Below are positions 8,529 to 61,385 of a stretch of DNA of 64,000 bases, one piece after another. The notes beneath the pieces are model-generated. The model was not told the DNA's origin, ran no database searches, and saw only the letters and a list, made by a program, of their open reading frames with translations. The DNA is taken from positions 8,572-72,571 of the forward strand of contig JAGFIW010000081.1 of assembly GCA_024103195.1 (NCBI GenBank), read 5' to 3'. The number at the start of each line of letters is the position of its first letter. The stretch's first letter is position 1. This stretch comes from Saprospiraceae bacterium. Lineage in GTDB: Bacteria > Bacteroidota > Bacteroidia > Chitinophagales > Saprospiraceae. The translations under genes and the position numbers were made by a program.

Positions 8529-8599
8529 ACGGAAGAATTATCGCCTCATAACAGAGAGCGGCGGTCAATGTTCCGACTAAACCGGCCAGGTCGGGCAGG

Positions 8600-48201: not shown

Positions 48202-48353
48202 AGGAAAACGGATTGTTGTTGTTCAGGTGCAGGCATTCAACCTGAGGAGAATCAGGCCGAATAAAGGTAATTTGATTTGCAGAATTGCCTGATTCTTTTT
48301 GTCGTTTCTCGGAATGGCGGCGCCGGGAATGGCCGATACCCTGTCCGGATGGT

Positions 48354-48361
48354 TATTTTTG
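48354..48361 (+). promoter_or_regulatory. -7 box TATTTTTG upstream of the heptahaem-TPR gene
   Basis: Exact TAnnTTTG match, 4 nt before ATG 48366. Confidence 0.35.
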
Positions 48362-48365
48362 CGCT

Positions 48366-50177
48366 ATGTCCAGGTGGTCGTTGGCAGGGGTATTGTTGGC
48401 CGGTGTTTGGCTGGCCGGATCATTGATGGATTGCACACCTGTCGCCGGAGGGGGTCAAACGGATTTTCTCAACATGCACGACAGTGTGGCTTATGTGGGC
48501 ATGGCCACTTGCCGGACCTGTCACGCAAATGTGCATGAAACCTTCCGGCATACCGGGATGGGCAGATCTTTCGGGCGCGCCACACCGGAGCGCAGCAGCG
48601 CCGTTTTTGGCGATCATGCGCTGGTCAGGGATTCATTGACAGGATACAGCTATTTCCCTTTTTTTAGGGATAGTGTCTTGTACATTCGCGAATTCAGACT
48701 ACAAGGCAAAGACACGGTCCACAACCGCGTGGAAAGAGTGTCATGGATCATCGGTTCCGGGCATCACACCAACTCGCACATCATCGAGCGGAACGGTTTC
48801 CTTTACCAGGCACCGATCACTTATTACACCCAAAGCCGGAGATGGGATATGGCCCCCGGGTATGAAGGAGGCGCCAACAGCAGGTTTTCCAGGATACTGA
48901 CCACGGAATGCCTGACGTGCCACAACCATTTTCCCGGTCATGTGGCCGGATCGGAAAACAAATACTTCGACATACCGGAAGGCATCGAATGCGAGCGATG
49001 CCATGGCCCGGGCGCCTTGCATGTCAAAGCGATACAGTCCGGCAACATAGTGGATACTTCCCGGATGGCCGACCGAACGATCGTCAATCCCCGACGATTG
49101 CCCCGGGACCGGCAAACCGATCTTTGCCAGCGCTGTCATTTGCAGGGGGTGGCGGTGCTTCGCCGGGGCAAAACCTTTTTTGATTTCCGGCCCGGCATGG
49201 CCCTTTCCGAAGTCATGCATGTTTTTCTGCCCCGATACAGCGATTCGGGGGAGCGATTCCTCATGGCTTCCCAGGCAGAGCGTCTCGTGCAAAGTGCGTG
49301 TTACCGCCTATCCGAATCACTGACCTGTATCACCTGCCATAACCCACATGTTTCGGTCTTGCAGACCGGAAGGGAACAATACAATACGACTTGCAGGAAT
49401 TGTCACGGTGCCCTGAAATGTTCGGCGCCGGAGGCGGACAGAAAGGCGCGCAAGGAGGATTGTGCAGGCTGTCACATGCCCGCTTCGGAGAGCATTGACA
49501 TCCCCCACGTCAGTATTACCGATCATTATATCCGCAAGGATTACCGGCCTGTATCCGGCGATGGGGGGAAAAGCCGGTTTTTGGGGTTGGAGCCCTTGAC
49601 CAGGGGCATGGTCGGGCCGGAGGAAATGGCGCAGGCGTATATCGCGCTTTACGAGAAATTCATTCCGGACCGGTCCCTGCTCGACTCGGCCGGACAATGG
49701 CTCGACCGGGCCCGGGGAAAGGAGACGGTGATTTTTCCGGTGCGGGTTCACTGGCTGTTTGCCCGGGAGGATTACGGTGCATTGGGCCGGCTGGCCGATC
49801 AATGCGATACGTCCGGGCTGGACGGGTGGACCGCCTATCGATTGGGAGAGGCCTGCATGCGGACGATGCGCCACAAGCAGGGATTGGCGTTTCTCGCCCG
49901 AGCGGCGCACATGGCCCCTTACCATCTGGAATTCCTCGAGAAATACGGGGTGGCGCTGGGTGTCCTTCAAAAAGGTGTGGAGGCCGAGAGGGTCTTCCGC
50001 CGGGTGTTGGTAGAGGATCCGGCCCGCCCGTTGGCGCTTACCAATCTGGGATACCTCCGTGCCGTGCAGGGAGATGTCGGGCAAGCCCGGCTTTACTACC
50101 GCAAGGCACTGGAACTGGACCCCGACTTCGAGCAGGCCCGGGTAAACCTGGAGGCACTGGAGGGCCTCCGGCGATGA
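48366..50177 (+). CDS. heptahaem c-type cytochrome fused to a C-terminal TPR domain
   Basis: Seven CXXCH: CRTCH, CLTCH, CERCH, CQRCH, CITCH, CRNCH, CAGCH. TPR-like helices in the last ~170 aa (...NLGYLRAVQGDVGQARLYYRKALELDPDFEQA). Signal/anchor MSRWSLAGVLLAGVWLAGSLMDC from ATG 48366; the track start 48285 is a TTG. Confidence 0.8.
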   Translation: MSRWSLAGVLLAGVWLAGSLMDCTPVAGGGQTDFLNMHDSVAYVGMATCRTCHANVHETFRHTGMGRSFGRATPERSSAVFGDHALVRDSLTGYSYFPFFRDSVLYIREFRLQGKDTVHNRVERVSWIIGSGHHTNSHIIERNGFLYQAPITYYTQSRRWDMAPGYEGGANSRFSRILTTECLTCHNHFPGHVAGSENKYFDIPEGIECERCHGPGALHVKAIQSGNIVDTSRMADRTIVNPRRLPRDRQTDLCQRCHLQGVAVLRRGKTFFDFRPGMALSEVMHVFLPRYSDSGERFLMASQAERLVQSACYRLSESLTCITCHNPHVSVLQTGREQYNTTCRNCHGALKCSAPEADRKARKEDCAGCHMPASESIDIPHVSITDHYIRKDYRPVSGDGGKSRFLGLEPLTRGMVGPEEMAQAYIALYEKFIPDRSLLDSAGQWLDRARGKETVIFPVRVHWLFAREDYGALGRLADQCDTSGLDGWTAYRLGEACMRTMRHKQGLAFLARAAHMAPYHLEFLEKYGVALGVLQKGVEAERVFRRVLVEDPARPLALTNLGYLRAVQGDVGQARLYYRKALELDPDFEQARVNLEALEGLRR

Positions 50178-50236: not shown

Positions 50237-50244
50237 TAACTTTG
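50237..50244 (+). promoter_or_regulatory. -7 box TAACTTTG upstream of the six-gene cytochrome operon
   Basis: Exact TAnnTTTG match, 18 nt before ATG 50263, inside the only sizeable gap (86 nt) in the island. Confidence 0.4.
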
Positions 50245-50262: not shown

Positions 50263-51129
50263 ATGAGTCCCATTGTTCACCGTGTTTATATTTCGACGTT
50301 AGTCACCATTGTCGCAAGTACTGCCTGTTTTCTGGCCTATAGCGGCTACTCGTACTATACGACCCCACTTGAGGAACGGTTTTTTCATCCCCGGCACGAT
50401 TGGTTCAAGCCTTCGGGAGCATTTGGACACGGGCTGGGCATTGTCGGCACTTTGCTTATTCTTTTGGGCGTATTCGGGTATATGGGTATCAAACGCACCC
50501 GTTTGTTGTCGAAAATGGGACGTTTGAAATATTGGCTGGAATTTCATATTTTCCTTTGTACGCTTGGTCCCGTCATGGTCCTTTTTCACACCGCTTTCAA
50601 GTTTGGCGGTATCGTCTCGGTCAGTTTCTGGAGTATGGTCGCTGTGGTGGCGAGTGGTGTGATCGGAAGGTTCATTTACGTGCAAATTCCCCGGTCCCTG
50701 GAAGGCCGTGAATTTTCCTTGCAGGAGCTTCATGCCATGCGGAAGGAATTGACGGAATCTCTGCGAACCGATTACGGATTGGATGAAGAAACGGTGCGTT
50801 TCATAGAGGACATTTCCGAGCAGCCCGTGAACGGAGGTGGAAATCTGATGGTACAATTTGTCCGGAGATGGATGGCTGACCGACGCGCGATCAGGGGCGT
50901 CGTTACCCGGTTGCGTGCCAAAGGAACGGATGGTAAGATCGTAAAAGCCATTCGGCGCAATTTCCGTAAAGAGCTCACCTTGAGGAGTCGAATCAACAGA
51001 TTGCAACACATGATCCGGCTGTTCAAGTACTGGCATGTTGCCCACCTTCCCTTTGCATTGATCATGCTCATTATCATGATCATTCATGTAGGTGTCACCC
51101 TTGCTTTTGGTTATCGCTGGATATTTTGA
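50263..51129 (+). CDS. five-TM membrane protein with two H-x13-H helices (candidate dihaem cytochrome b)
   Basis: TM3 is EFH-IFLCTLGPVMVLF-HTAF and TM5 is VAH-LPFALIMLIIMII-HVG. R/K-rich ~115-aa loop between TM4 and TM5. The coding call is solid; the haem-b function is inferred. Confidence 0.65.
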   Translation: MSPIVHRVYISTLVTIVASTACFLAYSGYSYYTTPLEERFFHPRHDWFKPSGAFGHGLGIVGTLLILLGVFGYMGIKRTRLLSKMGRLKYWLEFHIFLCTLGPVMVLFHTAFKFGGIVSVSFWSMVAVVASGVIGRFIYVQIPRSLEGREFSLQELHAMRKELTESLRTDYGLDEETVRFIEDISEQPVNGGGNLMVQFVRRWMADRRAIRGVVTRLRAKGTDGKIVKAIRRNFRKELTLRSRINRLQHMIRLFKYWHVAHLPFALIMLIIMIIHVGVTLAFGYRWIF

Positions 51130-51131
51130 CC

Positions 51132-52460
51132 ATGAACCAGGAAGAATTTTTGATTTATGCGATTGTCCTGGGATTTTGCTTCCTGGTCATTTGGCTTTAT
51201 TTGCGTCACACCCGACGCAGGTCGCAGGAGACCGAAGTGAAAATTGAACAAGCCAAGTTGGAAGGACTTCATGAACCGGTCTCTCTCCATCCGGTGATTG
51301 ACCTCAATACCTGTATTGGCAGTGCGGCATGTGTGGCCGCTTGTCCGGAGCAGGATATATTGGGATTGCTCAAGGGCAAAGCCCACCTGGTACATGCCTC
51401 CAATTGTGTTGGTCATGGTGCCTGTTTTCACAGTTGTCCCGTAGAGGCGATTTCTCTGGTTATCGGCACTGAAAAACGCGGTGTGGATTTGCCACATGTC
51501 AACCAGGATTACGAGACCAATGTCCAGGGTATTTTCATTGCCGGTGAGTTGGGGGGAATGGGATTGATCAAAAACAGTGTTGAACAGGGACAATCGGCGG
51601 TGGAAAGTATGGTTCGAAACGGATTTCCAGCGGGAGACAAAGAGTACGATCTTATTGTCGTGGGAGCCGGTCCGGCCGGCATTTCGGCCACTTTGACGGC
51701 GCGCAAACACAAATTGCGGTGTCTCACTTTGGAGCAGGATTCTTTGGGAGGTACCGTATTCACTTTTCCAAGGTCAAAAATTGTCATGACGGCTCCCATG
51801 GATCTACCCCTTCATGGCAAGGTGAAATTGTACGACACAAGCAAGCAGGAATTGCTGGAATTATGGCAAGCCGTTCTGCACAAAAACGGCATTTCCATCC
51901 GGGAACATGCCAAAGTGGAGGACATTACCATGGTCGCCGGGGGATTTGAAGTAAGGACATTGCAGGGTGACTGTTTTACCACCAAGAAGGTGTTGTTGGC
52001 CATCGGTCGAAGAGGGAGTCCCAGGAAGTTGGGCATACCGGGCGAGGATACCGAAAAAGTGGCCTACCGATTGCTCGAACCGGAAAACATTCATGACAAA
52101 AATGTGCTGGTGGTTGGGGGGGGAGATTCGGCCATTGAAGCGGCTTTGCTTTTGGCAGAAAACAATGCGGTGACCCTTTCATACCGGAAAGACACCTTCA
52201 GTCGTCTGAAACCCAAAAATCGGGACAAGATCCTGGAGGCGCAGCAACAAGGGGTTGTAGATGTCCAGTTGATGACCAATCCTCTGCGTATCGAAAAACA
52301 CGAAGTGATTCTGAACAAGGAGCCGGAAAATGCGGAGTTTCGGATACCCAATGACCTGGTTTACATTTTCGCCGGAGGGGAGTTGCCCACCCAATTTTTG
52401 GAAAAAACAGGAATACGTATCACCAAGCGATTTGGTTATACAGTACGGAGTTTCTCATGA
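51132..52460 (+). CDS. membrane-anchored 2x[4Fe-4S] ferredoxin-domain / FAD-NAD(P)H oxidoreductase
   Basis: N-terminal TM helix then RHTRRRSQE. CIGSAACVAACP and CVGHGACFHSCP cluster motifs. Dinucleotide folds DLIVVGAGPAGISA and VLVVGGGDSAIEAALLLAE about 158 aa apart (thioredoxin-reductase-like). ATG 51132 is 2 nt after the upstream stop. Confidence 0.8.
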   Translation: MNQEEFLIYAIVLGFCFLVIWLYLRHTRRRSQETEVKIEQAKLEGLHEPVSLHPVIDLNTCIGSAACVAACPEQDILGLLKGKAHLVHASNCVGHGACFHSCPVEAISLVIGTEKRGVDLPHVNQDYETNVQGIFIAGELGGMGLIKNSVEQGQSAVESMVRNGFPAGDKEYDLIVVGAGPAGISATLTARKHKLRCLTLEQDSLGGTVFTFPRSKIVMTAPMDLPLHGKVKLYDTSKQELLELWQAVLHKNGISIREHAKVEDITMVAGGFEVRTLQGDCFTTKKVLLAIGRRGSPRKLGIPGEDTEKVAYRLLEPENIHDKNVLVVGGGDSAIEAALLLAENNAVTLSYRKDTFSRLKPKNRDKILEAQQQGVVDVQLMTNPLRIEKHEVILNKEPENAEFRIPNDLVYIFAGGELPTQFLEKTGIRITKRFGYTVRSFS

Positions 52461-54385
52461 GGAATTTCCAAGTAGCGACGCAATCCTTCCATCCGGATAC
52501 ATTTTCCGGGTGTTGGCAAGCCGTCAGGAATGCTGCAACGGGTCTTGTAGGACAGTCCGGTAAAAGGAAATTTCTGACCGGGAAATTCATCTGCCTGTTA
52601 GTCCTTGGTTTCATCCGGACGGGATGGTCGCAATTGTCTCCCGGACCATTGGCGCAGGCCCATGCTCATCTGGAAGGCGTCAGAAATTGCACCCAATGTC
52701 ACGTCCTTGGCGAAAAGGTTTCCAATGACAAATGCCTGGCTTGTCACAAGGAAATCCGCCAGCTGCTCGGACAGCAGAGGGGATATCATGCCAGCCCGGG
52801 TGTAAAGGGCAAGGAGTGTGCATCTTGCCACAGTGACCATCACGGGCGAAATTTTACGCTCATCCGGTTCGAGGAAAAAACCTTTGATCACAAGTTGGCG
52901 GGATACCCGCTTACGGGGGCACATGCCCGTATTGATTGCCGTTCTTGTCACAAGGCCGATTTCATCAAGGATGCCGAACTGAAGAAGGATCGGGATACTT
53001 ACCTGGGCCTTGACAATGCATGTCTTGGTTGTCATGCCGATTACCATCGCCAGACGCTTTCGTCAGATTGTGCGAAATGTCATGGTACCGAAAGCTTTGT
53101 CCCTGCTTCATTATTCAATCATGACCGTACTGAATTTCCCCTCAAGGGGAAGCACCGAACAACTGCCTGTGTTGACTGCCATCCCAAAGAGACGCGTGAC
53201 GGTCAACCCTTTCAAAAGTTTACCGGATTGGCATTCGGAAAATGCACGGATTGTCATTCGGAGGTCCACCAGAGTATCCATGTGAAGGATTGCAGGGATT
53301 GCCACACGGAGCAATCCTTTTCCGCCATTCCTGTGGCTACCACCCGGTTCAATCACAAGGAAACCGGATTCCCGCTTCGCGGCCGGCATCAGAAGCTGGA
53401 ATGTGCCGCTTGTCACGACACCGGCCTGCCCCCGTCCGAAGTGCTCCGTGACAGGAAGGGCATAAAGGCGGATCAATGCGTTGTCTGCCATGAGGATCCA
53501 CACGAAGGTCGTTTTGGATCATCCTGTGCCTCGTGCCATTCGGAATCGTCCTTCCATGACGTGGCCATCTCGCTGGATTTTGATCATGACCAAACGGATT
53601 TTCCCCTTTTGGGGCGGCATCGGGCGGTGGATTGCCGGCTTTGTCATGAGGATGGTTTTACCACTCCTTTGGCCCATGAATCCTGCCATTCATGTCATGA
53701 GGATTACCACAAAGGCGAATTTGAGCGAGAAGGCCAAGGACCGGATTGCCGGGAATGCCATACAGTTGAAGGATTCCAGGGTAGTTTGTTTACCATTGAG
53801 CGACATGCCGGCACCAATTTTCCGCTGGAGGGCGCCCATCAGGCGACCCCTTGTTTTTCCTGCCATATGAAGGAAGAGAGGTGGACATTCAGAAATCTTG
53901 ACGTTCGTTGTGTGGGTTGTCATGAAGACGTCCACAAGGATCAGATTCCTGCCCGGTATTACCCTGGAAAAACTTGTGAATCCTGTCACCGGCCTACTTC
54001 CTGGGGGGACAACCACTTTGACCACAACCAGACCCAATTCCCGCTCCAGGGCGCCCATGGCAGGCAGCCGTGCCGGGAATGCCATGTGCCGGATACTGGA
54101 TTCCCGTATGGGAAGTTCGTATCTTTGGGGCGTGCCTGTGTCACCTGTCACGAGGACGAGCATCGCGGTCAGTTTCTATCGGGTGAAGTCGTCGATTGTG
54201 TCCGTTGCCATGGATATGACTCCTGGAAAATAGCTTTTTTTGACCATGACCGCACCGCGTTCCCCCTGGAAGGTCGACACAAAGAGGTGTCCTGTGATGG
54301 ATGCCATGTCGAGGTGGAAAAGGAGGGCGACCGATTCGTGTGGTACAAAATAGAGCGTTTCGCGTGCGCCGATTGCCACAAATAG
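52457..54385 (+). CDS. 23-haem c-type cytochrome built from c7/c3-like trihaem repeats
   Basis: 23 CXXCH counted in 642 aa. Recurrent linker F-D/N-H-x2-T-x-F-P-L-x-G-x-H occurs seven times. Signal peptide KFICLLVLGFIRTGWSQ. ATGA overlap with the upstream gene. Confidence 0.9.
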   Translation: MRNFQVATQSFHPDTFSGCWQAVRNAATGLVGQSGKRKFLTGKFICLLVLGFIRTGWSQLSPGPLAQAHAHLEGVRNCTQCHVLGEKVSNDKCLACHKEIRQLLGQQRGYHASPGVKGKECASCHSDHHGRNFTLIRFEEKTFDHKLAGYPLTGAHARIDCRSCHKADFIKDAELKKDRDTYLGLDNACLGCHADYHRQTLSSDCAKCHGTESFVPASLFNHDRTEFPLKGKHRTTACVDCHPKETRDGQPFQKFTGLAFGKCTDCHSEVHQSIHVKDCRDCHTEQSFSAIPVATTRFNHKETGFPLRGRHQKLECAACHDTGLPPSEVLRDRKGIKADQCVVCHEDPHEGRFGSSCASCHSESSFHDVAISLDFDHDQTDFPLLGRHRAVDCRLCHEDGFTTPLAHESCHSCHEDYHKGEFEREGQGPDCRECHTVEGFQGSLFTIERHAGTNFPLEGAHQATPCFSCHMKEERWTFRNLDVRCVGCHEDVHKDQIPARYYPGKTCESCHRPTSWGDNHFDHNQTQFPLQGAHGRQPCRECHVPDTGFPYGKFVSLGRACVTCHEDEHRGQFLSGEVVDCVRCHGYDSWKIAFFDHDRTAFPLEGRHKEVSCDGCHVEVEKEGDRFVWYKIERFACADCHK

Positions 54386-57300
54386 CGTTCTGCCTCGCCC
54401 TGGTCACCTCACTGGGCGCCCAGTCTCCGCATGGTCCGGCCTTTGCCTTGCAATGTGCCGACTGTCATACAACCGATGGTTGGAAGACCATGCGGAAAGA
54501 CATGGTGTTCGACCATGCCACCACGAATTTCCAACTGGAAGGAAGGCATCGCACGGTAGATTGCAGGGCGTGTCATTCCACTCTTGTGTTCGGGGAGGCT
54601 GAGACGGATTGCGTTTCCTGCCATACAGATGTCCATCAGCAAACCGTTGGACAGGACTGTGCGCGTTGTCATCATACGGAAAACTGGTTGGTGGATGACA
54701 TTTCAGGCATCCATCAGGACAATGGATTCCCGTTGGTTGGCGCACATGCCGCTGCCCAGTGTTTTGATTGCCACGTTTCGGAAAGCGACCTGCGATTTGA
54801 TCGTTTGGGGAACGATTGTATTTCCTGCCATCGGGAAGATTACCAGGGTACGACAAATCCCAACCACCAGGAAGCGGGATTTTCCCTCCAATGTGCCGAT
54901 TGTCATGATCCGGTTCGGTTTGGTTGGGAATCAGGGCCTGTTGAACATGATTTTTTCCCGCTCACCAAGGGGCATGACATCGCGGATTGCGGGCAGTGCC
55001 ACACAGGTGGGGATTTTACCCAGACGCCGACGGATTGCGCCGCCTGTCACCAGGCCGACTTTGATGCCACTTCCCAACCCAGTCATACGATGGCAGGCTT
55101 CCCTACCGACTGTCGCATGTGTCACACGACAGATCCCGGCTGGATGCCTGCCGAATTTCGGGATCACGACGGATTGTATTTCCCCGTTTATTCGGGAGCG
55201 CATGAAGGAACCTGGTCCTCTTGCACGGAATGCCATCAGAACCAGGGGGATTTCGGTGAATTCACCTGCCTGACCTGTCACCAGCCGCAGGAAACGGACG
55301 ATGAACACCAGGGAATTGGCGGCTACATCTATCAAAGCCAGGCTTGTCTGGCATGTCACCCCACCGGCAATGCGGATGACATCTTTGATCACAATGCGAC
55401 CGCATTCCCGTTGACCGGAGCCCATGTGGATGTGGATTGCGCGGCCTGTCACGGCGGAGGATTCCAGGGCACACCTACAGAATGTGCCGCCTGCCATATG
55501 CCAGCTTTTGATCAGACCAACAATCCTGATCACGGAGATCTCGGCTTTCCTGCGGATTGCGCGGCCTGTCATACCACGGCGCCGGATTGGACACCTGCCG
55601 GCATGCCGGACCATGACGCCTATTATGCGCTGAATGGAGCACACGCGCTTATTCGGGATGATTGCTCCTCTTGTCATCATGGGGATTACAACAATACCCC
55701 CAATACCTGCTGGGGTTGTCACCAGAATGATTTCCAGAACACCCTTGATCCTGATCATGAGGCCCTCAACTTTTCAACGGATTGCATTACCTGCCATACG
55801 GAATCAGCATGGTCGCCAACCGCCTTCGATCATGACGGACAGTTTTTTCCGATTTACAGTGGCCAACACGAAGGTGAATGGATGTCCTGCACCGATTGCC
55901 ACAACAATCCTTCCCAATATGCCGATTTCACTTGTCTGACCTGCCATCTCAATCCCGAAACGGATGACCAGCATCAGGGCATTTTGGGTTATGTCTACGC
56001 GAGTACGGCTTGTTTGGCTTGCCATCCGACGGGCAGTGCCGACGATGTCTTTGATCACAACCAAACCGGTTTTTCCCTGACGGGTGCTCATTTGACCACT
56101 GATTGCCTGGAATGTCATGCCGGAGGATTCAGCGGCACCCCAACGGCATGCAATGCCTGCCATTCGGAGGATTTCAACCAGGCGGGAAATCCCAATCATG
56201 TGGCGTTAGGTTTGCCGATGGATTGCGCCTCCTGTCACAGTACGGAGCCCGGATGGAGTCCCGCCCAGTTTCCGGACCACGACAATTATTATGCGTTGGT
56301 TGGTGCCCATGCGATGATCGCTATGGATTGCGCCGCCTGTCATAACGGGGATTACCAGAATACACCCAATACCTGTGCGGGTTGCCACCAGAAGGATTAC
56401 GACCAAACGAATGATCCCAACCATGCAAGTCTCCAGTTCAGTACTGACTGCGCCTCCTGTCATAATGAATCCGCCTGGGAGCCATCCTCTTTTGATCATG
56501 ACGGACAGTATTTCCCCATTAACAGTGGTGCGCATGCCGGTGAATGGACGACTTGTACGGATTGTCACATGAATCCTGGGGATTGGGCTGATTTTACTTG
56601 TCTGACATGCCATCTCAATCCCGAGACCGAGGATCAACATCAGGGTGTCCAGGGCTTTGTCTATGTCAGCACAGCCTGTCTGGCTTGTCACCCCACGGGT
56701 AGCGCGGATGACATTTTCGATCATGACCAGACCGGGTTTGCGCTGACCGGCGCTCACCAGCAGGCAGATTGTCTGGATTGTCATGCGGGAGGCTTTGCGG
56801 GAACGCCAACGGCATGCAGTGCCTGCCATTTGGAAGATTTCAACCAAGCGGTCAATCCCAACCATATGACCTTGGGTTTGCCTATGGATTGTGCTTCCTG
56901 TCACAGTACGGAGCCAGGATGGAGCCCTGCCCAGTTTCCGGACCACGACAGCTATTACCCGTTGTTGGGCGCCCATGCGATGATCGCCATGGATTGCGCC
57001 GCCTGTCACAACGGGGATTACCAGAATACACCCAATACTTGTGCGGGTTGCCATCTGGAAGATTTTCAGCAAACCACGGATCCGGATCATGAAGCTGCCC
57101 AATTCAATACCGACTGTGCTTCATGCCACTCTGAAAATGCCTGGAGCCCAGCCCAGTTTGACCATGACGGGCAGTATTTCCCCATCTACAGCGGCAAGCA
57201 TGAAGGGGAGTGGAGCCAGTGTACGGATTGCCATACGGATCCCGGGAATTACGCCACTTTCAGTTGCACAGGGTGTCATGTCAATCCGGAAACGGATGAC

Positions 57301-58944
57301 CATCATGCCGGAATACCGGGGTATTCATACAGCAGTCCTTCCTGTCTGGCCTGCCATCCGACGGGCAGTGCCGACGACCCTTTTGACCACAGCCAAACCA
57401 ATTTTCCGCTAACAGGTGCCCACGTATCCGTTTCCTGCATCGAATGCCATGCAGGAGGCTACCAGGGAACACCCATGAATTGTGATGCCTGCCATCTCGG
57501 AGATTTCAACCAGGCCAGCAATCCCAATCACCTGACCCTGGGCCTTTCGACCGATTGTATGACTTGTCACACCACCGATCCAGGCTGGAGTCCGGCTTCA
57601 TTTCCTGTTCACAATGATTTTTGGGTCATCGACGGGGCTCATATCCCCGTAGCGAACGAATGTGCACTGTGCCATAACGGGGATTACAACAATACCCCCA
57701 ATACCTGTTCGGGATGTCATTTGCCGGATTACAATCAATCCGTCAATCCGGACCATGGTGCATTGGGATTTCCTACCGATTGTGCCACCTGTCATACGAC
57801 AGATCCGGGTTGGAGTCCTGCAGAATTTCCCCAGCATAATGATTATTGGGTCATTGATGGGGCCCATGTTCCCATTGCCCAGGACTGCGCCGCATGTCAT
57901 AATGGTGACTATCAAAACACACCCAATACCTGTGCGGGTTGTCACCAGGAAGACTACAACCAGAGTCTGAATCCCAACCACATCTCTTTGGGGTTGCCCA
58001 TGGATTGTGCCCAATGTCACACCACGGCACCCGACTGGATGCCGGCCACCTTCCCCTTGCATGATGCCTATTGGCCGATTACAGGGGCGCATACCGCCAT
58101 TGCCAATGACTGTGCAGCATGCCACGGGGGTGATTACAACAACACACCCAACACTTGTTATGGGTGTCATACCGAGGATTACAATCAAACGTCAAATCCG
58201 GACCATCAGGCGGCACAATTCCCCACCGATTGCACCCAATGTCACAATCAGGATGCCTGGACACCTGCCACTCTTGATCACAACCTGTTTTGGCCTTTGA
58301 CGGGGGCTCATGCGGCCATTGCCAACGATTGCAATGCCTGTCACAATGGCAATTACAACAATACCCCCAATGCTTGTTCCGCATGTCATACCGATGATTA
58401 CAACCAGAGTGCAAATCCAAGTCATGCTTCGTTGGGCTTGCCAATGGATTGTGCGATGTGCCATACCACGGATCCGGATTGGATGCCGGCCACTTTCCCC
58501 ATTCATGATGATTTCTGGCCTTTGACGGGGGCTCATGCGGCCATTGCCAATGAGTGTTCGACCTGTCACAACGGCAATTACAACAATACGCCCAATACGT
58601 GCTACGGTTGTCACATGGCCGATTACAATGGGACCAACAATCCGGACCATGCTGCGGCAGGATTTCCGACGACTTGCGAAAATTGCCATACTACCTCGGC
58701 CTGGACTCCTTCCAATTGGGATCATGACAGCCAATATTTCCCCATTTACAGCGGGAAGCATGATGGAGAATGGAATCAATGTACGGACTGCCACACCGTG
58801 CCGGGCAATTACGCGATTTTCAGTTGTATCGATTGTCACCAGCATGACGACCCTGCTGAAGTTGGTGATGACCATCAGGGGGTACCGGGATATTCCTACA
58901 ATAGCCAGGCCTGTTATGATTGTCACCCGACGGGTGAAGATTAA
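54364..58944 (+). CDS. 61-haem modular giant c-type cytochrome
   Basis: 61 CXXCH counted by hand. A GTG 54364 start gives a canonical signal peptide (M)RRLPQIAFCLALVTSLGAQS with 22-nt overlap of the upstream gene. The alternative ATG 54301 would overlap by 85 nt. Ends CYDCHPTGED. Confidence 0.9.
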   Translation: MRRLPQIAFCLALVTSLGAQSPHGPAFALQCADCHTTDGWKTMRKDMVFDHATTNFQLEGRHRTVDCRACHSTLVFGEAETDCVSCHTDVHQQTVGQDCARCHHTENWLVDDISGIHQDNGFPLVGAHAAAQCFDCHVSESDLRFDRLGNDCISCHREDYQGTTNPNHQEAGFSLQCADCHDPVRFGWESGPVEHDFFPLTKGHDIADCGQCHTGGDFTQTPTDCAACHQADFDATSQPSHTMAGFPTDCRMCHTTDPGWMPAEFRDHDGLYFPVYSGAHEGTWSSCTECHQNQGDFGEFTCLTCHQPQETDDEHQGIGGYIYQSQACLACHPTGNADDIFDHNATAFPLTGAHVDVDCAACHGGGFQGTPTECAACHMPAFDQTNNPDHGDLGFPADCAACHTTAPDWTPAGMPDHDAYYALNGAHALIRDDCSSCHHGDYNNTPNTCWGCHQNDFQNTLDPDHEALNFSTDCITCHTESAWSPTAFDHDGQFFPIYSGQHEGEWMSCTDCHNNPSQYADFTCLTCHLNPETDDQHQGILGYVYASTACLACHPTGSADDVFDHNQTGFSLTGAHLTTDCLECHAGGFSGTPTACNACHSEDFNQAGNPNHVALGLPMDCASCHSTEPGWSPAQFPDHDNYYALVGAHAMIAMDCAACHNGDYQNTPNTCAGCHQKDYDQTNDPNHASLQFSTDCASCHNESAWEPSSFDHDGQYFPINSGAHAGEWTTCTDCHMNPGDWADFTCLTCHLNPETEDQHQGVQGFVYVSTACLACHPTGSADDIFDHDQTGFALTGAHQQADCLDCHAGGFAGTPTACSACHLEDFNQAVNPNHMTLGLPMDCASCHSTEPGWSPAQFPDHDSYYPLLGAHAMIAMDCAACHNGDYQNTPNTCAGCHLEDFQQTTDPDHEAAQFNTDCASCHSENAWSPAQFDHDGQYFPIYSGKHEGEWSQCTDCHTDPGNYATFSCTGCHVNPETDDHHAGIPGYSYSSPSCLACHPTGSADDPFDHSQTNFPLTGAHVSVSCIECHAGGYQGTPMNCDACHLGDFNQASNPNHLTLGLSTDCMTCHTTDPGWSPASFPVHNDFWVIDGAHIPVANECALCHNGDYNNTPNTCSGCHLPDYNQSVNPDHGALGFPTDCATCHTTDPGWSPAEFPQHNDYWVIDGAHVPIAQDCAACHNGDYQNTPNTCAGCHQEDYNQSLNPNHISLGLPMDCAQCHTTAPDWMPATFPLHDAYWPITGAHTAIANDCAACHGGDYNNTPNTCYGCHTEDYNQTSNPDHQAAQFPTDCTQCHNQDAWTPATLDHNLFWPLTGAHAAIANDCNACHNGNYNNTPNACSACHTDDYNQSANPSHASLGLPMDCAMCHTTDPDWMPATFPIHDDFWPLTGAHAAIANECSTCHNGNYNNTPNTCYGCHMADYNGTNNPDHAAAGFPTTCENCHTTSAWTPSNWDHDSQYFPIYSGKHDGEWNQCTDCHTVPGNYAIFSCIDCHQHDDPAEVGDDHQGVPGYSYNSQACYDCHPTGED
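54889..57552 (+). repeat. four tandem 666-bp (222-codon, nine-haem) units inside the 61-haem gene
   Basis: Equivalent positions fall at 54889, 55555, 56221, 56887 and 57553, in exact 666-bp register. Units 3 and 4 are about 90% identical over their first ~170 nt by manual alignment. Confidence 0.85.
57553..58671 (+). repeat. five tandem trihaem units (225/225/225/219/225 bp) inside the 61-haem gene
   Basis: GAT-TGx (Asp-Cys) unit starts at 57553, 57778, 58003, 58228 and 58447. Consensus DCxxCHTTDPxWxPAxFPxHDxxWxxxGAHxxIAxxCxxCHNGxYxNTPNTCxGCHxxDYNQxxNPxHxxxGxP. Confidence 0.85.
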
Positions 58945-58947
58945 TTG

Positions 58948-60585
58948 ATGCCGGTCATGCGATGGAAACTCATAGTGTTGATTCAACTCACGGTAATTGC
59001 AGTGAGTGCGCAGGAACCGGCATCATTCCTGGAAGGGTCAGTATCCTTTTTAACGGCTCAAAATGTTTATGTCAAATTTGACAACACGAGTGCCATTGAG
59101 ATAGGGGACACGCTTTATCTGAAACGCCCGGATTCATGGGAGCCCCTCCTGACGGTTTCCCAAAAATCCTCGATTTCCTGCGTGTGTATTCCGTTGGGGC
59201 CCATGCCCGTGAAAGGGACTTTGGTGTTTGCCATCACCTGGAAGGATGCCCAATCGGAGAAAGTCGTGCCATTGCCGGAACAGCAGCCTGTTGCCCCCCC
59301 ACTTCCTCCTGATGCTCCACTACAAATACCTGAAGATTCAGAAGAGGCTCCTCCTTCAGACAATTCAGAAAAGACAGCGACGAGACAACGAATTATGGGA
59401 AGATTCTCTGCGGCTTCTTACAGTACATTGACGAAGGGATCGAACCAGCATAGAATGCGTTATTCTCTGAACTGGAAAGGGGAAAATCTTGGCGGAAGCC
59501 CTTTTTCTGTGGAGGGCTATCTGACATTTCGCCACACGGCAGGTGAGTGGGAGGAGGTTCGCGAAAATCTGTTTGATGTATTCAAAATCATTTCGCTGGC
59601 GGTCCGATATGATCCGACAGTGCGGACATCCATTTCTGTGGGTCGCCGGATAAATGCCCGTATTTCAAGTATGGGTGCCATAGACGGTATTCAGGTTGAG
59701 CATGGATGGGGGAAGGTGCGCATTGGTGTCATGGCGGGTTCCCGGCCTGATTTTATGGATTATAGCATCAATCCGGCGTTGCTGCAAGGCGGAGCCTGGA
59801 TCGGATTCGACCTGGGATCCTCCTGGGCGAGATTTCAAAATACTGCTGCCATTGTAGAACAACGAAATGGTCCGCGGACCGATCGGCGGTTCCTGTATTT
59901 CCAACACTCGGGCACCTGGTTTACCCATCTTCATCTCTTCTTGTCTTCCGAAGTGGATTTATACAGGAAAGTGGGTCAGGAAGTCGGTTCCACTTTGTCA
60001 TTTACCAATTTGTTTGCCTCCCTGCGTTATCGGTTCTCCAGACAGTTGAGTGCGTCTGTTTCCTATGACAATCGGAAGAATGTCATTTTCTTTGAATCCT
60101 ACAAGAATTTTATTGACCAGTTGATTGAACAGGAATCAAGACAAGGCCTCAGATTTCAGATGCAATACAAGCCATGGCGACTTGTTTCGATAGGTGCCAA
60201 TGCGAGTTGGAGGTTTCAAGCCAGTGGGGCCAATCCTTCCCGCAATTTGAATGGTTATGTGACCGTGGCCCGGATTCCCTGGATTTCCGGCAGCATGACC
60301 GTTTCCGGCAATATGCTCAACACCGGTTATTTGCAGAGCAACATGTACAGTGTACGTTACATGAGGGAAATCGTACGTGGCCATGTAAGTGCAGATGCCT
60401 ATTACCGGTGGATCGATTACACCTATCCTTCGGATTTCCGACTCCATAATGATCTGGCCGGTATCAATGTCACCTGCAGGCTGACTCGCTTGCTGGCAAT
60501 TCATTTGTATTACGAAGCCACCTTCGGAAGTGAAAATACGAACATTTCACGTTTGAATGCCAAAATTACGCATCGGCTCCAGTGA
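58948..60585 (+). CDS. predicted outer-membrane beta-barrel protein (candidate porin partner of the cytochromes)
   Basis: Signal peptide MRWKLIVLIQLTVIAVSAQ. Roughly 90-aa N-terminal domain, then Pro-rich linker PLPEQQPVAPPLPPDAPLQIPEDSEEAPP. About 20 short amphipathic alternating segments follow (RMRYSLNWK, FSVEGYLTFRH, LSASVSYDNR, GLRFQMQYKP, VSIGANASWRFQ, LAIHLYYEATFG...). TTG 58945 directly follows the upstream stop; the ATG is at 58948. Confidence 0.6.
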   Translation: MPVMRWKLIVLIQLTVIAVSAQEPASFLEGSVSFLTAQNVYVKFDNTSAIEIGDTLYLKRPDSWEPLLTVSQKSSISCVCIPLGPMPVKGTLVFAITWKDAQSEKVVPLPEQQPVAPPLPPDAPLQIPEDSEEAPPSDNSEKTATRQRIMGRFSAASYSTLTKGSNQHRMRYSLNWKGENLGGSPFSVEGYLTFRHTAGEWEEVRENLFDVFKIISLAVRYDPTVRTSISVGRRINARISSMGAIDGIQVEHGWGKVRIGVMAGSRPDFMDYSINPALLQGGAWIGFDLGSSWARFQNTAAIVEQRNGPRTDRRFLYFQHSGTWFTHLHLFLSSEVDLYRKVGQEVGSTLSFTNLFASLRYRFSRQLSASVSYDNRKNVIFFESYKNFIDQLIEQESRQGLRFQMQYKPWRLVSIGANASWRFQASGANPSRNLNGYVTVARIPWISGSMTVSGNMLNTGYLQSNMYSVRYMREIVRGHVSADAYYRWIDYTYPSDFRLHNDLAGINVTCRLTRLLAIHLYYEATFGSENTNISRLNAKITHRLQ

Positions 60586-60647: not shown

Positions 60648-61385
60648 ATGATGAAATCGCATTTGTTTGTGTTGGGCATTGTTGGCATACTATTGCTCCA
60701 AGGATATGGCTGTGACTCCGGACCTAAAGTGATTGAAAGTGACTCTGAACAGGCTGGAGAGCCTCAAATACGGATGGAGCAAGAAGACCCTATTCGGGAA
60801 GTAATGGTCGAAGAGGTGCTTCATACCGACAAGTATTCCTATCTGAATGTCAAGGAAGGGGACAAGGAGACCTATTGGATTGCGATTCCCAGAAGTGAAG
60901 TTGAAGTGGGTGATGCCCTGAGATACAAGGGAGGATTGATGAAGCAAAATTTTTACAGCCGTGAATATGACCGGACATTTGAAACGTTGTACCTGGTTTC
61001 CGACATCAGAAGAGCCAGCGCTTCGCCAGGTGAGCTTCAGGCAGGAAATAATCCGGAAGATGTCATCAAAGTCGAACCCGGTTCCATTCAGCCTGCAGAA
61101 GGGGCTATCCGCATAGCTGATTTACTGGCTGCACCTTCCAGGTATGCGAATAAAACGGTAAGGGTTACGGGAAAGGTGGTCAAAGTCAATCCCATGATAA
61201 TGAGTCGCAATTGGGTCCATTTGCAGGACGGCAGTGGAAAAGATCTGGATTTGACATTCACGACCACTGATCTTGTGACATTGGGATCAGTGGTGACACT
61301 GGAAGGCAAGGTGGCCCTTGATAAAGACTTCGGAGCCGGTTACAGGTATGATGTCATCGTTGAAGACTGTCGCCTGATTCCCTGA
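60648..61385 (+). CDS. hypothetical lipoprotein with OB-fold-like C-terminal half
   Basis: MMKSHLFVLGIVGILLLQGYGC lipobox. C-terminal KTVRVTGKVVKVNPMIMSRNWVHLQDGSG...VTLEGKV resembles periplasmic BOF/YgiW-type OB folds (weak, by eye). Confidence 0.5.
   Translation: MMKSHLFVLGIVGILLLQGYGCDSGPKVIESDSEQAGEPQIRMEQEDPIREVMVEEVLHTDKYSYLNVKEGDKETYWIAIPRSEVEVGDALRYKGGLMKQNFYSREYDRTFETLYLVSDIRRASASPGELQAGNNPEDVIKVEPGSIQPAEGAIRIADLLAAPSRYANKTVRVTGKVVKVNPMIMSRNWVHLQDGSGKDLDLTFTTTDLVTLGSVVTLEGKVALDKDFGAGYRYDVIVEDCRLIP

Follow-up and report, generated by a model that had tools for sequence, protein, structure and literature searches.

We describe a two-gene module in a 64,000-nucleotide stretch of the genome of a Saprospiraceae bacterium (positions 8,572 to 72,571 of contig JAGFIW010000081.1, assembly GCA_024103195.1; the term "window" denotes this whole stretch), in which two open reading frames (ORFs), here called A and B, lie within a same-strand run of genes that encodes, in order, a cytochrome c with seven CxxCH motifs, A, B, a cytochrome with 23 CxxCH motifs, a giant cytochrome with 61 such motifs, and proteins of 546 and 245 residues. 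A is a membrane protein with four strongly conserved histidines that are candidate ligands for two b haems, B is a predicted membrane-anchored iron-sulfur (Fe-S) flavoprotein, and together they probably form an electron exporter that would connect cytoplasmic NAD(P)H with the cytochromes encoded downstream. The two genes are as follows.

50263-51129, forward strand: ORF A, a 288-residue membrane protein with five transmembrane (TM) helices, a candidate di-haem cytochrome b, without annotation.
51126-52460, forward strand: ORF B, 444 residues from a TTG start, a predicted membrane-anchored Fe-S flavoprotein with matches to Pyr_redox_3 and Fer4_10.

An earlier reading of the DNA letters, which we call the first-pass annotation, had placed the second gene 2 nt downstream of the first. 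This holds for an ATG at 51132, which lies 2 nt past the stop codon of A, but not for the listed TTG start at 51126, which overlaps A; the ATG is probably the true start of B, as it gives the better fit to the N-termini of the orthologues.

The same annotation had described A as a 288-residue protein with five helices, two of which, TM3 and TM5, carry H-x13-H pairs, and the stretches it quoted are exact. Hydropathy and an AlphaFold2 (AF2) model, with a predicted local distance difference test (pLDDT) score of 93.9 and a predicted template modelling (pTM) score of 0.84, place the membrane helices at residues ~7-30, 53-78, 88-111, 116-140, and 257-281. The features on which the interpretation of A turns are listed below.

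50545-50589, forward strand: the TM3 histidine pair H95-IFLCTLGPVMVLF-H109, an H-x13-H arrangement (H95 at 50545-50547, H109 at 50587-50589).
51043-51087, forward strand: the TM5 histidine pair H261-LPFALIMLIIMII-H275, an H-x13-H arrangement (H261 at 51043-51045, H275 at 51085-51087), preceded by W257 and H258.
50683-51027, forward strand: a helical, K/R-rich cytoplasmic insert between TM4 and TM5, ~115 residues long (residues 141-255).

Invariance of the four histidines had been put forward as a check of the haem proposal, and we assessed it in an alignment of 59 full-length A relatives (alignment A2), which share 27-59% identity with the window protein at a mean column identity of 36%. H109, H261, and H275 are each present in 59 of 59 sequences and H95 in 58, with a Tyr in its place in P0130, and the x13 spacing is held in both helices throughout (59/59). 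The four residues rank among the 15 best-conserved of the 288 columns, for which the chance probability, given four positions named in advance, is ~5e-6, so that the observation is far beyond chance. W257 is likewise invariant (59/59), and the other histidines of A are less well kept (H258 53/59, H56 45/59, H42 37/59, H45 32/59, and H6 23/59).

The distribution of basic residues provides the topology. Both the loop at residues 77-89 (KRTRLLSKMGRLK), between TM2 and TM3, and the ~115-residue TM4-TM5 loop are rich in K and R, as had been stated, and across the alignment the N-terminal tail, the TM2-TM3 loop, and the ends of the TM4-TM5 insert hold a mean of 12.1 K+R against 4.0 in the other loops, with the same bias in 59 of 59 sequences. 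This places loops 77-90 and 140-256 inside, and thus gives A an N-in, C-out orientation with one histidine of each pair near each membrane face, in agreement with the earlier positive-inside analysis. H95 and H261 are predicted to lie ~5 residues from the cytoplasmic ends of their helices and H109 and H275 3-6 residues from the periplasmic ends, and both histidine-bearing helices run in the same direction. Fourteen residues along a helix correspond to ~21 Angstrom and return to roughly the same face, which is the classical geometry for two stacked bis-His haems. Near-invariance, fixed spacing, parallel helices, and the placement of one member of each pair per face all support the view that the four histidines of A behave like haem ligands, in which case H95 and H261 would ligate an inner haem and H109 and H275 an outer one.

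The cytoplasmic insert averages 19.9 K+R across the family and is modeled as helices at residues 153-171, 175-185, 195-219, and 224-281, the last of which continues straight into TM5; we propose that it could serve as a docking platform for B. One A relative, P0154, is a 513-residue protein on a 2.3-kb contig that bears a 236-residue N-terminal extension.

The family to which A belongs is large and nameless. It comprises more than 7,500 matches in a database clustered at 90% identity, every one of them named "hypothetical", and 2,701 clusters at 50% identity in an exhaustive search, and a scan of species-representative genomes with a 12-sequence alignment recovered at least 585 loci. The carriers include Saprospiraceae, Lewinellaceae, Flavobacteriales (among them the cultured Yeosuana marina), Cyclobacteriaceae, Bacteroidales, Prolixibacteraceae, and one metagenome-assembled genome of the Chlorobiota. 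A is the founding member of a new, unannotated protein family, which fails all curated thresholds.

The second subunit, B, is built from four recognizable parts, given here in order along the gene.

51147-51203, forward strand: the N-terminal TM anchor, residues ~8-26 by hydropathy, with an acidic N-tail before it and RHTRRRSQE after it.
51312-51440, forward strand: the dicluster ferredoxin domain, with its motifs at 51312-51347 and 51405-51440.
51489-51605, forward strand: a putatively displaced FAD "GD-motif" segment, residues ~122-160, beginning ETNVQGIFIAGELGG, which lies ahead of the GxGxxG motif.
51645-52460, forward strand: the two-Rossmann flavoprotein body, with a predicted flavin adenine dinucleotide (FAD) site at G180AGPAG185 and a predicted NAD(P)H site at G331GGDSA336.

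The single anchor followed by a cytoplasmic body, as claimed at first pass, is borne out by hydropathy and by the orthologues: the pattern of acidic tail, helix, and basic stretch is found in all 24 orthologue N-termini inspected, and a twin-Arg ahead of the helix in none. The acidic tail and the basic stretch after the helix indicate that B is oriented N-out/C-in with its body in the cytoplasm, and a periplasmic location was rejected on account of the basic residues after the helix and the lack of a Tat or Sec-like N-region.

The ferredoxin domain required a correction. It had been read as two CxxCxxCxxxCP cluster motifs, and the actual motifs are CxxSxxCxxxCP (C63-IGS-AA-C69-VAA-C73-P) and CxxHxxCxxxCP (C94-VGH-GA-C100-FHS-C104-P), a pattern shared by 77 of 77 orthologues, in which the consensus sequences are C-I-x-[S/T]-[G/A]-A-C-x3-C-P-E and C-[V/I]-G-H-G-A-C-F-H-x-C-P. 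Six Cys, not eight, are invariant (77/77), as are Ser/Thr66 (77/77) and His97 (77/77). Residues 55-112 nevertheless match Fer4_10 at E 1.9e-10 (40.9 bits against a cut-off of 25.5) and Fer4_2 at 36.6 bits against 24.5. When the second Cys of such a motif is lost, the cluster becomes either [3Fe-4S] or a [4Fe-4S] type with Ser or His as a ligand; these usually have higher potentials than clusters ligated by Cys throughout, and the clusters of B would accordingly be expected to be of one or the other of these types. A raised cluster potential would fit electron transfer that runs downhill from FAD to haem. The presence of one Ser-type and one His-type three-Cys site within a single dicluster domain is unusual.

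The flavoprotein body of B matches Pyr_redox_3 at E 8.6e-39 (134 bits against 30) and Pyr_redox_2 at 91.7 bits against 26.1. The two dinucleotide-binding folds, spaced as in thioredoxin reductase (TrxR)-like enzymes, had been recognized correctly; both the G180AGPAG and the G331GGDSA motifs are kept in the orthologues (the former as GAGPAGIsA), and residues 175-437 span the whole two-Rossmann fold in matches to 7a76 (E 3.8e-22), 7a7b (2.5e-17), and 3ab1 (8e-14). The closest structures are those of YpdA, TrxR, and TrxR-type ferredoxin-NADP reductases. Assignment to either of two disulfide-linked families was rejected, namely YpdA/Bdr (TIGR04018), for which B scores 150.1 bits against 339.9 and has Ala184 where 7a76 and 7a7b have a Cys (GGGPCG), and thioredoxin reductase (TIGR01292), for which it scores 72.5 bits against 343, lacks a CxxC, and has Cys199 and Cys283, which are not conserved. 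The absence of a CxxC, together with an Ala in place of the YpdA Cys, suggests that B is an electron-transfer flavoprotein rather than a disulfide reductase. The residues Y353-R354-K355 align with the HRR/HRG 2'-phosphate site, which suggests that B uses NADPH.

The order of the segments within B also departs from that of its relatives. Residues 122-145 align to target positions ~273-302 in all four top matches in the PDB, each of these local matches being non-significant when taken alone, and the segment in question is the one that ends TrxR-like proteins (ETNxxxIFIAG...), with the C-terminus of B stopping where this segment would begin. The position of the GD segment ahead of GxGxxG and the early C-terminus point to an apparent circular permutation of the TrxR/YpdA fold.

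The two genes are tightly linked. In a tblastn survey B lies directly downstream of A in 83 of 83 loci, with a gap mostly of -1 to +12 nt, and an orthologue of the 23-haem cytochrome follows B in 75 of the 78 loci with downstream room (median 23 CxxCH motifs in 68 orthologues). Most loci of sufficient length repeat the arrangement of A, B, the 23-haem cytochrome, a large cytochrome, the 546-residue protein, and the 245-residue protein, in that order, and the A-B pair is the constant first element of the giant-cytochrome operon. Even at 27-32% identity A and B are still adjacent in four loci (L084, L085, L090, and L091), which, where the contig continues, keep two to three multihaem cytochromes and a ~530-residue protein, and B remains near A in all distant loci of adequate length.

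The remaining features of the operon and its surroundings are these.

52457-54385, forward strand: the 23-CxxCH multihaem cytochrome c, whose ATG overlaps the stop codon of B (ATGA).
54301-58944, forward strand: the giant multihaem cytochrome c, 1547 residues with 61 CxxCH motifs.
58945-60585, forward strand: the 546-residue protein (D546), a predicted outer-membrane beta-barrel (AF2 model and Foldseek).
60648-61385, forward strand: the 245-residue lipoprotein, with a signal peptide ending ...GYGC, which forms the conserved end of the operon.
48285-50177, forward strand: the 7-CxxCH cytochrome c with C-terminal tetratricopeptide (TPR) repeats, 85 nt upstream of A.
50237-50244, forward strand: a promoter-like element, TAACTTTG, read from the sequence, 19 nt upstream of the A ATG.
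61681-63996, reverse strand: a 771-residue ResB-like/CcsA-like fusion of system II cytochrome c biogenesis, which converges on the operon.
28616-33823, reverse strand: a 1735-residue surface protein with SprB repeat, PKD, and CHU_C (type IX secretion) domains, of the type found in gliding Bacteroidota and unrelated to A and B.

The giant cytochrome holds about one haem per 25 residues in obviously repetitive modules, and ORFs containing its orthologues elsewhere reach up to 73 motifs. The 23-haem cytochrome, the probable periplasmic acceptor of A, is weakly similar to ExtN/ExtO of a selenite/tellurite reduction operon, and both it and the 61-haem cytochrome weakly match HmcA. Against the DmsE family the cytochromes score 41-45 bits where the cut-off is 192, which leaves no homology of the MtrA/DmsE type. 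D546, similarly, has no sequence match in Pfam or the PDB and no MtrB/PioB homology. Its AF2 model, built from a 42-sequence alignment (pLDDT 81.5), comprises a signal peptide, a small N-terminal beta domain, a disordered Pro-rich linker, and ~22 long antiparallel strands, and Foldseek returned 349 PDB matches at E<=1e-3, of which every listed one is an outer-membrane barrel, be it the FimD usher pore, an Occ porin, or a TonB-dependent receptor; its orthologues mostly end in ...RIIKRF. On the strength of this model D546 is probably the porin of the conduit and would represent a new porin family for cytochrome conduits. A barrel beside multihaem cytochromes, which is a trait of Mtr and Pcc conduits, is therefore present here, with the order kept in most loci, and with the cytochromes, the barrel, the lipoprotein, and A and B the operon supplies components to each envelope layer.

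The 7-haem/TPR gene stands apart from this arrangement. Among the 83 loci it is found only in L004, a same-species locus that is 97% identical, which puts it outside the conserved module, and the encoded cytochrome appears to be a recent lineage-specific addition. The element TAACTTTG fits TAnnTTTG, which we take to be the Bacteroidetes -7 promoter consensus, so that the genes from A to the lipoprotein may own a promoter apart from the upstream 7-haem gene, and the sequence suggests a separate promoter for this operon. The remainder of the window is an ordinary Bacteroidota chromosome, with genes for RNase R, IleRS, SecA, PBP2, a TonB-dependent receptor, and surface proteins of the type IX secretion system (T9SS, CHU_C).

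Taken together, these data lead us to a model in which A and B are a two-subunit transmembrane exporter that passes electrons from NAD(P)H through FAD, Fe-S clusters, and two b haems to cytochrome c and on to the outside of the cell, to which we assign a probability of roughly 0.55. In this model B, tethered at the cytoplasmic face by its N-terminal helix, would oxidize NAD(P)H, probably NADPH, at its TrxR/YpdA-type FAD domain and relay single electrons via two three-Cys clusters with Ser/Thr or His at the fourth-ligand position. The electrons would enter A at the inner haem b (H95 and H261), move to the outer haem b (H109 and H275), and reduce the 23-haem cytochrome c encoded next, from which they would pass to the giant cytochrome and the outer-membrane barrel and so leave the cell. 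The module would regenerate NAD(P)+ as a sink that conserves no energy, and would not be a site of coupling. The transfer of electrons toward the outside is electrogenic and is favored by a negative-inside membrane potential, as in NADPH oxidases; on bioenergetic reasoning export is the favored direction, since outward flow is aided by the potential, whereas inward flow would have to fight both the potential and a redox gap. The data show the motifs and their conservation, the charge-based topology, the linkage of the genes, and an operon whose products span the envelope; we infer that A binds haem, which histidines pair, that A and B touch, which donor serves B, which way the electrons run, and that quinones play no part, and of the steps of the mechanism the bypass of quinones is the least secure.

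Several observations weigh against this model, and the first group concerns the ancestry of A. In Pfam the window protein has only sub-threshold matches, to DUF4079 (E 0.0027) and DUF4405 (PF14358; E 0.055, 14.4 bits against a cut-off of 26.7), and none to Ferric_reduct (PF01794) at E<=0.1. A Foldseek search of the A model against the PDB, suggested at first pass as a check for folds resembling the ferric reductase domain (FRD) and NADPH oxidase (NOX), gave nothing at E<=0.001 (best E 0.9) and found no solved haem-b membrane protein or FRD fold. In a search of the PDB with a profile of TM1-TM4, 5o0t_A, labeled "putative ferric reductase" in the results and which we take to be the NOX5 membrane domain, is one of only four sequences at E<=10, and its match, co-linear over ~100 residues, is non-significant at E 2.1. 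The second group concerns linkage and biology. At two loci of 32% identity (L088 and L089) A and B are ~3.5 kb apart (L088:10001-15669), with small cytochromes and genes of no recognized function between them; at three others (L018, L067, and L076) the pair has no adjacent cytochromes; no A-B fusion protein was found among the 150 best representatives; and many carriers are aerobic heterotrophs in which the need for an electron sink is not obvious. The donor could also differ from NAD(P)H, and A could hold a quinone site.

There is, however, a pattern in the weak matches. When the 59 relatives of A were scanned singly, they gave matches, all sub-threshold, to DUF4405 (29/59), Ferric_reduct (13/59), Ni_hydr_CYTB (13/59), and PepSY_TM (1), with best scores of E 2.3e-5 for DUF4405 and E 5.5e-4 for Ferric_reduct; the best individually seen Ferric_reduct score was 19.7 bits against a cut-off of 28. 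PF01292 (prokaryotic cytochrome b561/FdnI/HydC), which has no match in the window protein, is touched below threshold by 13 of the 59 relatives and reaches 22.4 bits against 30.1 in the best of them, on TM5 only. DUF4405, Ferric_reduct, cytochrome b561, and PepSY_TM are all His-ligated haem-b membrane families; Ferric_reduct aligns on TM2-TM3 of A, and DUF4405 and b561 on TM5. A close relative of A, P0114, bears a precomputed PF14358 label. In the alignment with 5o0t_A both TM3 histidines superpose (lEFHi...x13...fHTafkF on iEFHk...x13...vHTgahF), and hhalign gives the same alignment with a P of 0.016. No single one of these signals is significant, and the combined picture makes a remote kinship of A with the ferric-reductase/DUF4405 group plausible. 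The likeness to the cytochrome b of bc1/b6f complexes that had been noted earlier reduces to the H-x13-H spacing as the sole shared trait, as no cytochrome b family of this kind appeared in the Pfam scans or PDB searches of A.

As regards the exceptional loci, the A-B pair stands alone at L067 and L076, and at L018 (5261-7060) B is followed by a 599-residue secreted protein with zero CxxCH motifs, whose signal peptide ends in GWSQ like that of the 23-haem cytochrome. These exceptions suggest that A-B is a constant core whose acceptor can vary. A CcsA-like gene lies just upstream of A-B at L067, and at L088 and L089 an OEP-family outer-membrane protein is found nearby in place of the 546-residue barrel.

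Other matches of A were discarded. Its sequence matches in the PDB are noise, among them nitric oxide synthase at E 1.7 and designed coiled coils on the cytoplasmic insert, and the Foldseek matches, such as G-protein-coupled receptors and F-BAR domains, were dismissed as meaningless similarities to unrelated helical proteins. The top match of the TM1-TM4 profile, plant mitochondrial COX3 (7jro_c; E 0.016, A residues 9-75), is probably compositional and does not include a His-bearing helix; the aligned region covers a conserved periplasmic loop motif, G-x-S-YY...G-x-GH-G-x-G (window 50263-50487).

The most substantial rival explanation, though in our judgment an unlikely one, is that A is a menaquinol-oxidizing cytochrome b, like NarI, FdnI, or CbcL, which feeds the periplasmic cytochromes, with B as an accessory that, for example, feeds or poises the same haems or reduces quinone at A, the two forming an NAD(P)H:quinone reductase pair. 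To our knowledge every characterized Gram-negative entry point into cytochrome-based extracellular electron transfer (EET), including CymA, ImcH, CbcL, and CbcBA, uses quinol, and the 13 relatives of A with weak matches to Ni_hydr_CYTB touch on a quinone-reactive family. A quinol oxidase, however, needs no cytoplasmic flavoprotein of the NAD(P)H type, and yet B follows A at near-zero spacing in 83 of 83 loci; the large, conserved, basic cytoplasmic domain of A and its polybasic TM2-TM3 loop suit the docking of a cytoplasmic partner; and histidine pairs on two helices are the pattern of NOX and of the ferric reductase FRE and not that of FdnI or NarI. The doubt about whether A is a cytochrome at all carries far less weight. 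Here A would be a transporter or sensor whose histidines coordinate a metal ion or form the lining of a channel, and the linkage to B and the cytochromes would be regulatory or structural. The lack of a significant match of A to any curated family or solved structure is compatible with such a view, but Pfam and NCBIfam scans detected no transporter or sensor domain in A (the latter gave no matches of any kind), every recurrent weak match is to a haem-b family, and histidines 14 residues apart on two same-direction helices, held in 59 of 59 sequences, fit two stacked bis-His haems and not a single metal site, so that we regard this reading as the most improbable of those considered.

Two further alternatives accept the proposed chain and differ in its direction or its use. 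Electrons might flow inward, from Fe(II), reduced humics, a cathode, or a partner cell, via A to B, where NAD(P)+ or another cytoplasmic acceptor would be reduced; porin-cytochrome conduits elsewhere do run either way (Mto/Pio), and flavoenzymes of the class of B are reversible in principle. Such a flow would nonetheless work against the negative-inside potential, and by the same reasoning typical extracellular donors are far more positive than the NAD(P)+/NAD(P)H couple; three-Cys and His-ligated clusters are usually of raised potential, which favors flow away from FAD; and the operon encodes no energy-coupling subunit. We hold inward flow to be very unlikely. It is somewhat easier to imagine, if still improbable, that the mechanism is as proposed and its purpose another: reductive iron acquisition in the manner of yeast FRE, surface detoxification of oxidants or metalloids, or the charging of giant cytochromes as an electron store. 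Assimilatory and protective reductases typically use NADPH-type donors, the carriers of the pair include aerobic Flavobacteriaceae from the sea (Yeosuana marina, for example), and the resemblance of the 23-haem cytochrome to ExtN/ExtO, weak as it is, leads to a selenite/tellurite reduction operon. A "capacitor" role has moreover been suggested for the giant cytochromes of Saprospiraceae (PMC11495043). More than 80 haem irons per conduit would, on the other hand, be an odd investment for the acquisition of iron, and no transporter or peroxidase-type domain occurs in the conserved operon.

Returning to export of NAD(P)H-derived electrons by A and B as the preferred explanation, we would separate what is already known from what is new. 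Known are the combination of a di-haem membrane protein with a cytoplasmic NAD(P)H flavoenzyme, as in NOX, FRE, and MsrQ-Fre, and the linking of a cytochrome b to Fe-S proteins, as in Tmc and Hmc. New are the A family itself, a dedicated, anchored Fe-S flavoprotein with three-Cys motifs and an apparent permutation, and the fixed position of the pair at the head of a Bacteroidota porin-cytochrome operon. Searches of the full-text literature found no description of the A/B pair; a preprint on EET in peat was set aside, as it concerns other phyla. Clusters of giant or uncharacterized cytochromes have been noted before in Bacteroidetes and Saprospiraceae, with no inner-membrane module identified (PMC8258643, PMC6344600, PMC11495043).

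The wider interest of the pair stems from its carriers. Saprospiraceae and other Bacteroidota with giant cytochromes are abundant in activated sludge, sediments, and marine particles, and the metabolic wiring of these cytochromes has so far been unexplained. If the model is correct, A-B would provide a concrete entry point for EET in a phylum without a characterized pathway, and a quinone-bypassing route that dissipates membrane potential, in which case the carriers should be modeled by redox balancing rather than by respiration. It would likewise make a split, Fe-S-containing addition to the NOX/FRE/MsrQ story, and would offer a compact two-gene module for the engineering of NAD(P)H-driven electron export. 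A bolder formulation, which we put forward tentatively and with the odds against it, is that A and B constitute a new family of quinone-independent exporters, a kind of "NADPH oxidase for minerals", in which a permuted, anchored flavoprotein with Ser- and His-type clusters and a five-TM di-haem cytochrome b, distantly related to NOX/FRE and corresponding to a NOX split between TM5 and TM6, charge giant cytochromes; this would be the first cytochrome-based EET to bypass quinones.

Among the known systems closest to A and B are NOX and FRE1, in which H-x13-H pairs on TM3 and TM5 ligate two haems. A shares with these the two pairs on TM3 and TM5, 13 residues apart, the cytoplasmic N-terminus, the polybasic TM2-TM3 loop, and a TM4-TM5 loop that faces the dehydrogenase, and the TM2-TM3 and TM4-TM5 loops would sit where the B- and D-loops of NOX contact the dehydrogenase. 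The likeness extends to the proposed path from NAD(P)H through FAD to the inner and then the outer haem, and to the weak sequence signal to Ferric_reduct and the NOX5 TM domain. The differences are equally clear: A has five TM helices and a periplasmic C-terminus, where NOX and FRE have six helices and keep both termini in the cytoplasm; helix six and the dehydrogenase reside on a separate polypeptide, B; B is a ferredoxin fused to a permuted TrxR/YpdA-type flavoprotein and not an FNR (ferredoxin-NADP+ reductase)-type enzyme, which adds two Fe-S clusters to the path; the acceptor would be a multihaem cytochrome c and not O2 or Fe(III); and A carries the 115-residue TM4-TM5 insert. In terms of topology, A (N-in, five TM, C-out) followed by the out-to-in helix and dehydrogenase of B would copy the six-helix plan of NOX/FRE as if it had been cut in the short outer loop between TM5 and TM6, for which "split" is an apt word. 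The description of the pair as a split NOX/FRE-like module, given at first pass, thus stands as regards the histidine layout, the topology, and the A-B linkage, and fails on the Pfam thresholds and on the FNR-type dehydrogenase, of which no domain (FAD_binding_8 or NAD_binding_6) was seen among the best 25 of the 27 Pfam families matching B. The likeness is therefore best described as an analogy, in which any homology would be remote and confined to the membrane part, and family membership is not established.

On the flavoprotein side, B shares the two-Rossmann fold of YpdA/Bdr and of TrxR-type ferredoxin-NADP+ reductases, from which it differs by the absence of a CxxC or YpdA Cys and by its anchor, its dicluster domain, and the moved FAD segment. 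The MsrQ (YedZ)-Fre system likewise has a separate haem-b membrane protein, which accepts electrons from a cytoplasmic NAD(P)H flavoenzyme and hands them to a periplasmic redox partner. In E. coli, MsrQ serves a molybdoenzyme, MsrP, and the flavin reductase, Fre, is soluble, unlinked, and general in function, whereas B is dedicated, membrane-anchored, Fe-S-containing, and translationally coupled to A, and the partner is a chain of multihaem cytochromes. MsrQ-like cytochromes have been discussed alongside DUF4405 and FezC, which bind haem b via four central histidines, as has been shown experimentally (PMC11334425). Like A, the DUF4405, FezC, and PepSY-like proteins are small bacterial membrane proteins in which four central histidines are the most conserved residues (PMC11334425). 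They differ in that they are described as having six TM helices and are tied to ApbE flavinylation or to ferrosomes, not to an Fe-S flavoprotein and multihaem cytochromes; A matches them only below threshold, and the conserved operon contains no apbE.

The Tmc and Hmc complexes of sulfate reducers offer a membrane cytochrome b that joins a periplasmic multihaem cytochrome c to a cytoplasmic Fe-S protein without a dedicated quinone step. They differ from A-B in their HdrD-like CCG-domain subunits, in the inward passage of electrons for sulfate reduction, and in having neither an NAD(P)H flavoprotein nor an outer-membrane barrel, and Pfam and NCBIfam scans revealed no sequence relationship of A or B to their subunits. 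The same scans gave no homology of A or B to the known EET entry modules CymA, ImcH, CbcL, CbcBA, and Ndh2/EetAB (Listeria). The position of A-B is comparable to that of these modules, as each represents the first membrane step upstream of periplasmic or outer-membrane cytochromes and a porin, and the essential difference lies in the source of the electrons: the established modules draw on the quinone pool, whereas A and B would draw on cytoplasmic pyridine nucleotide.

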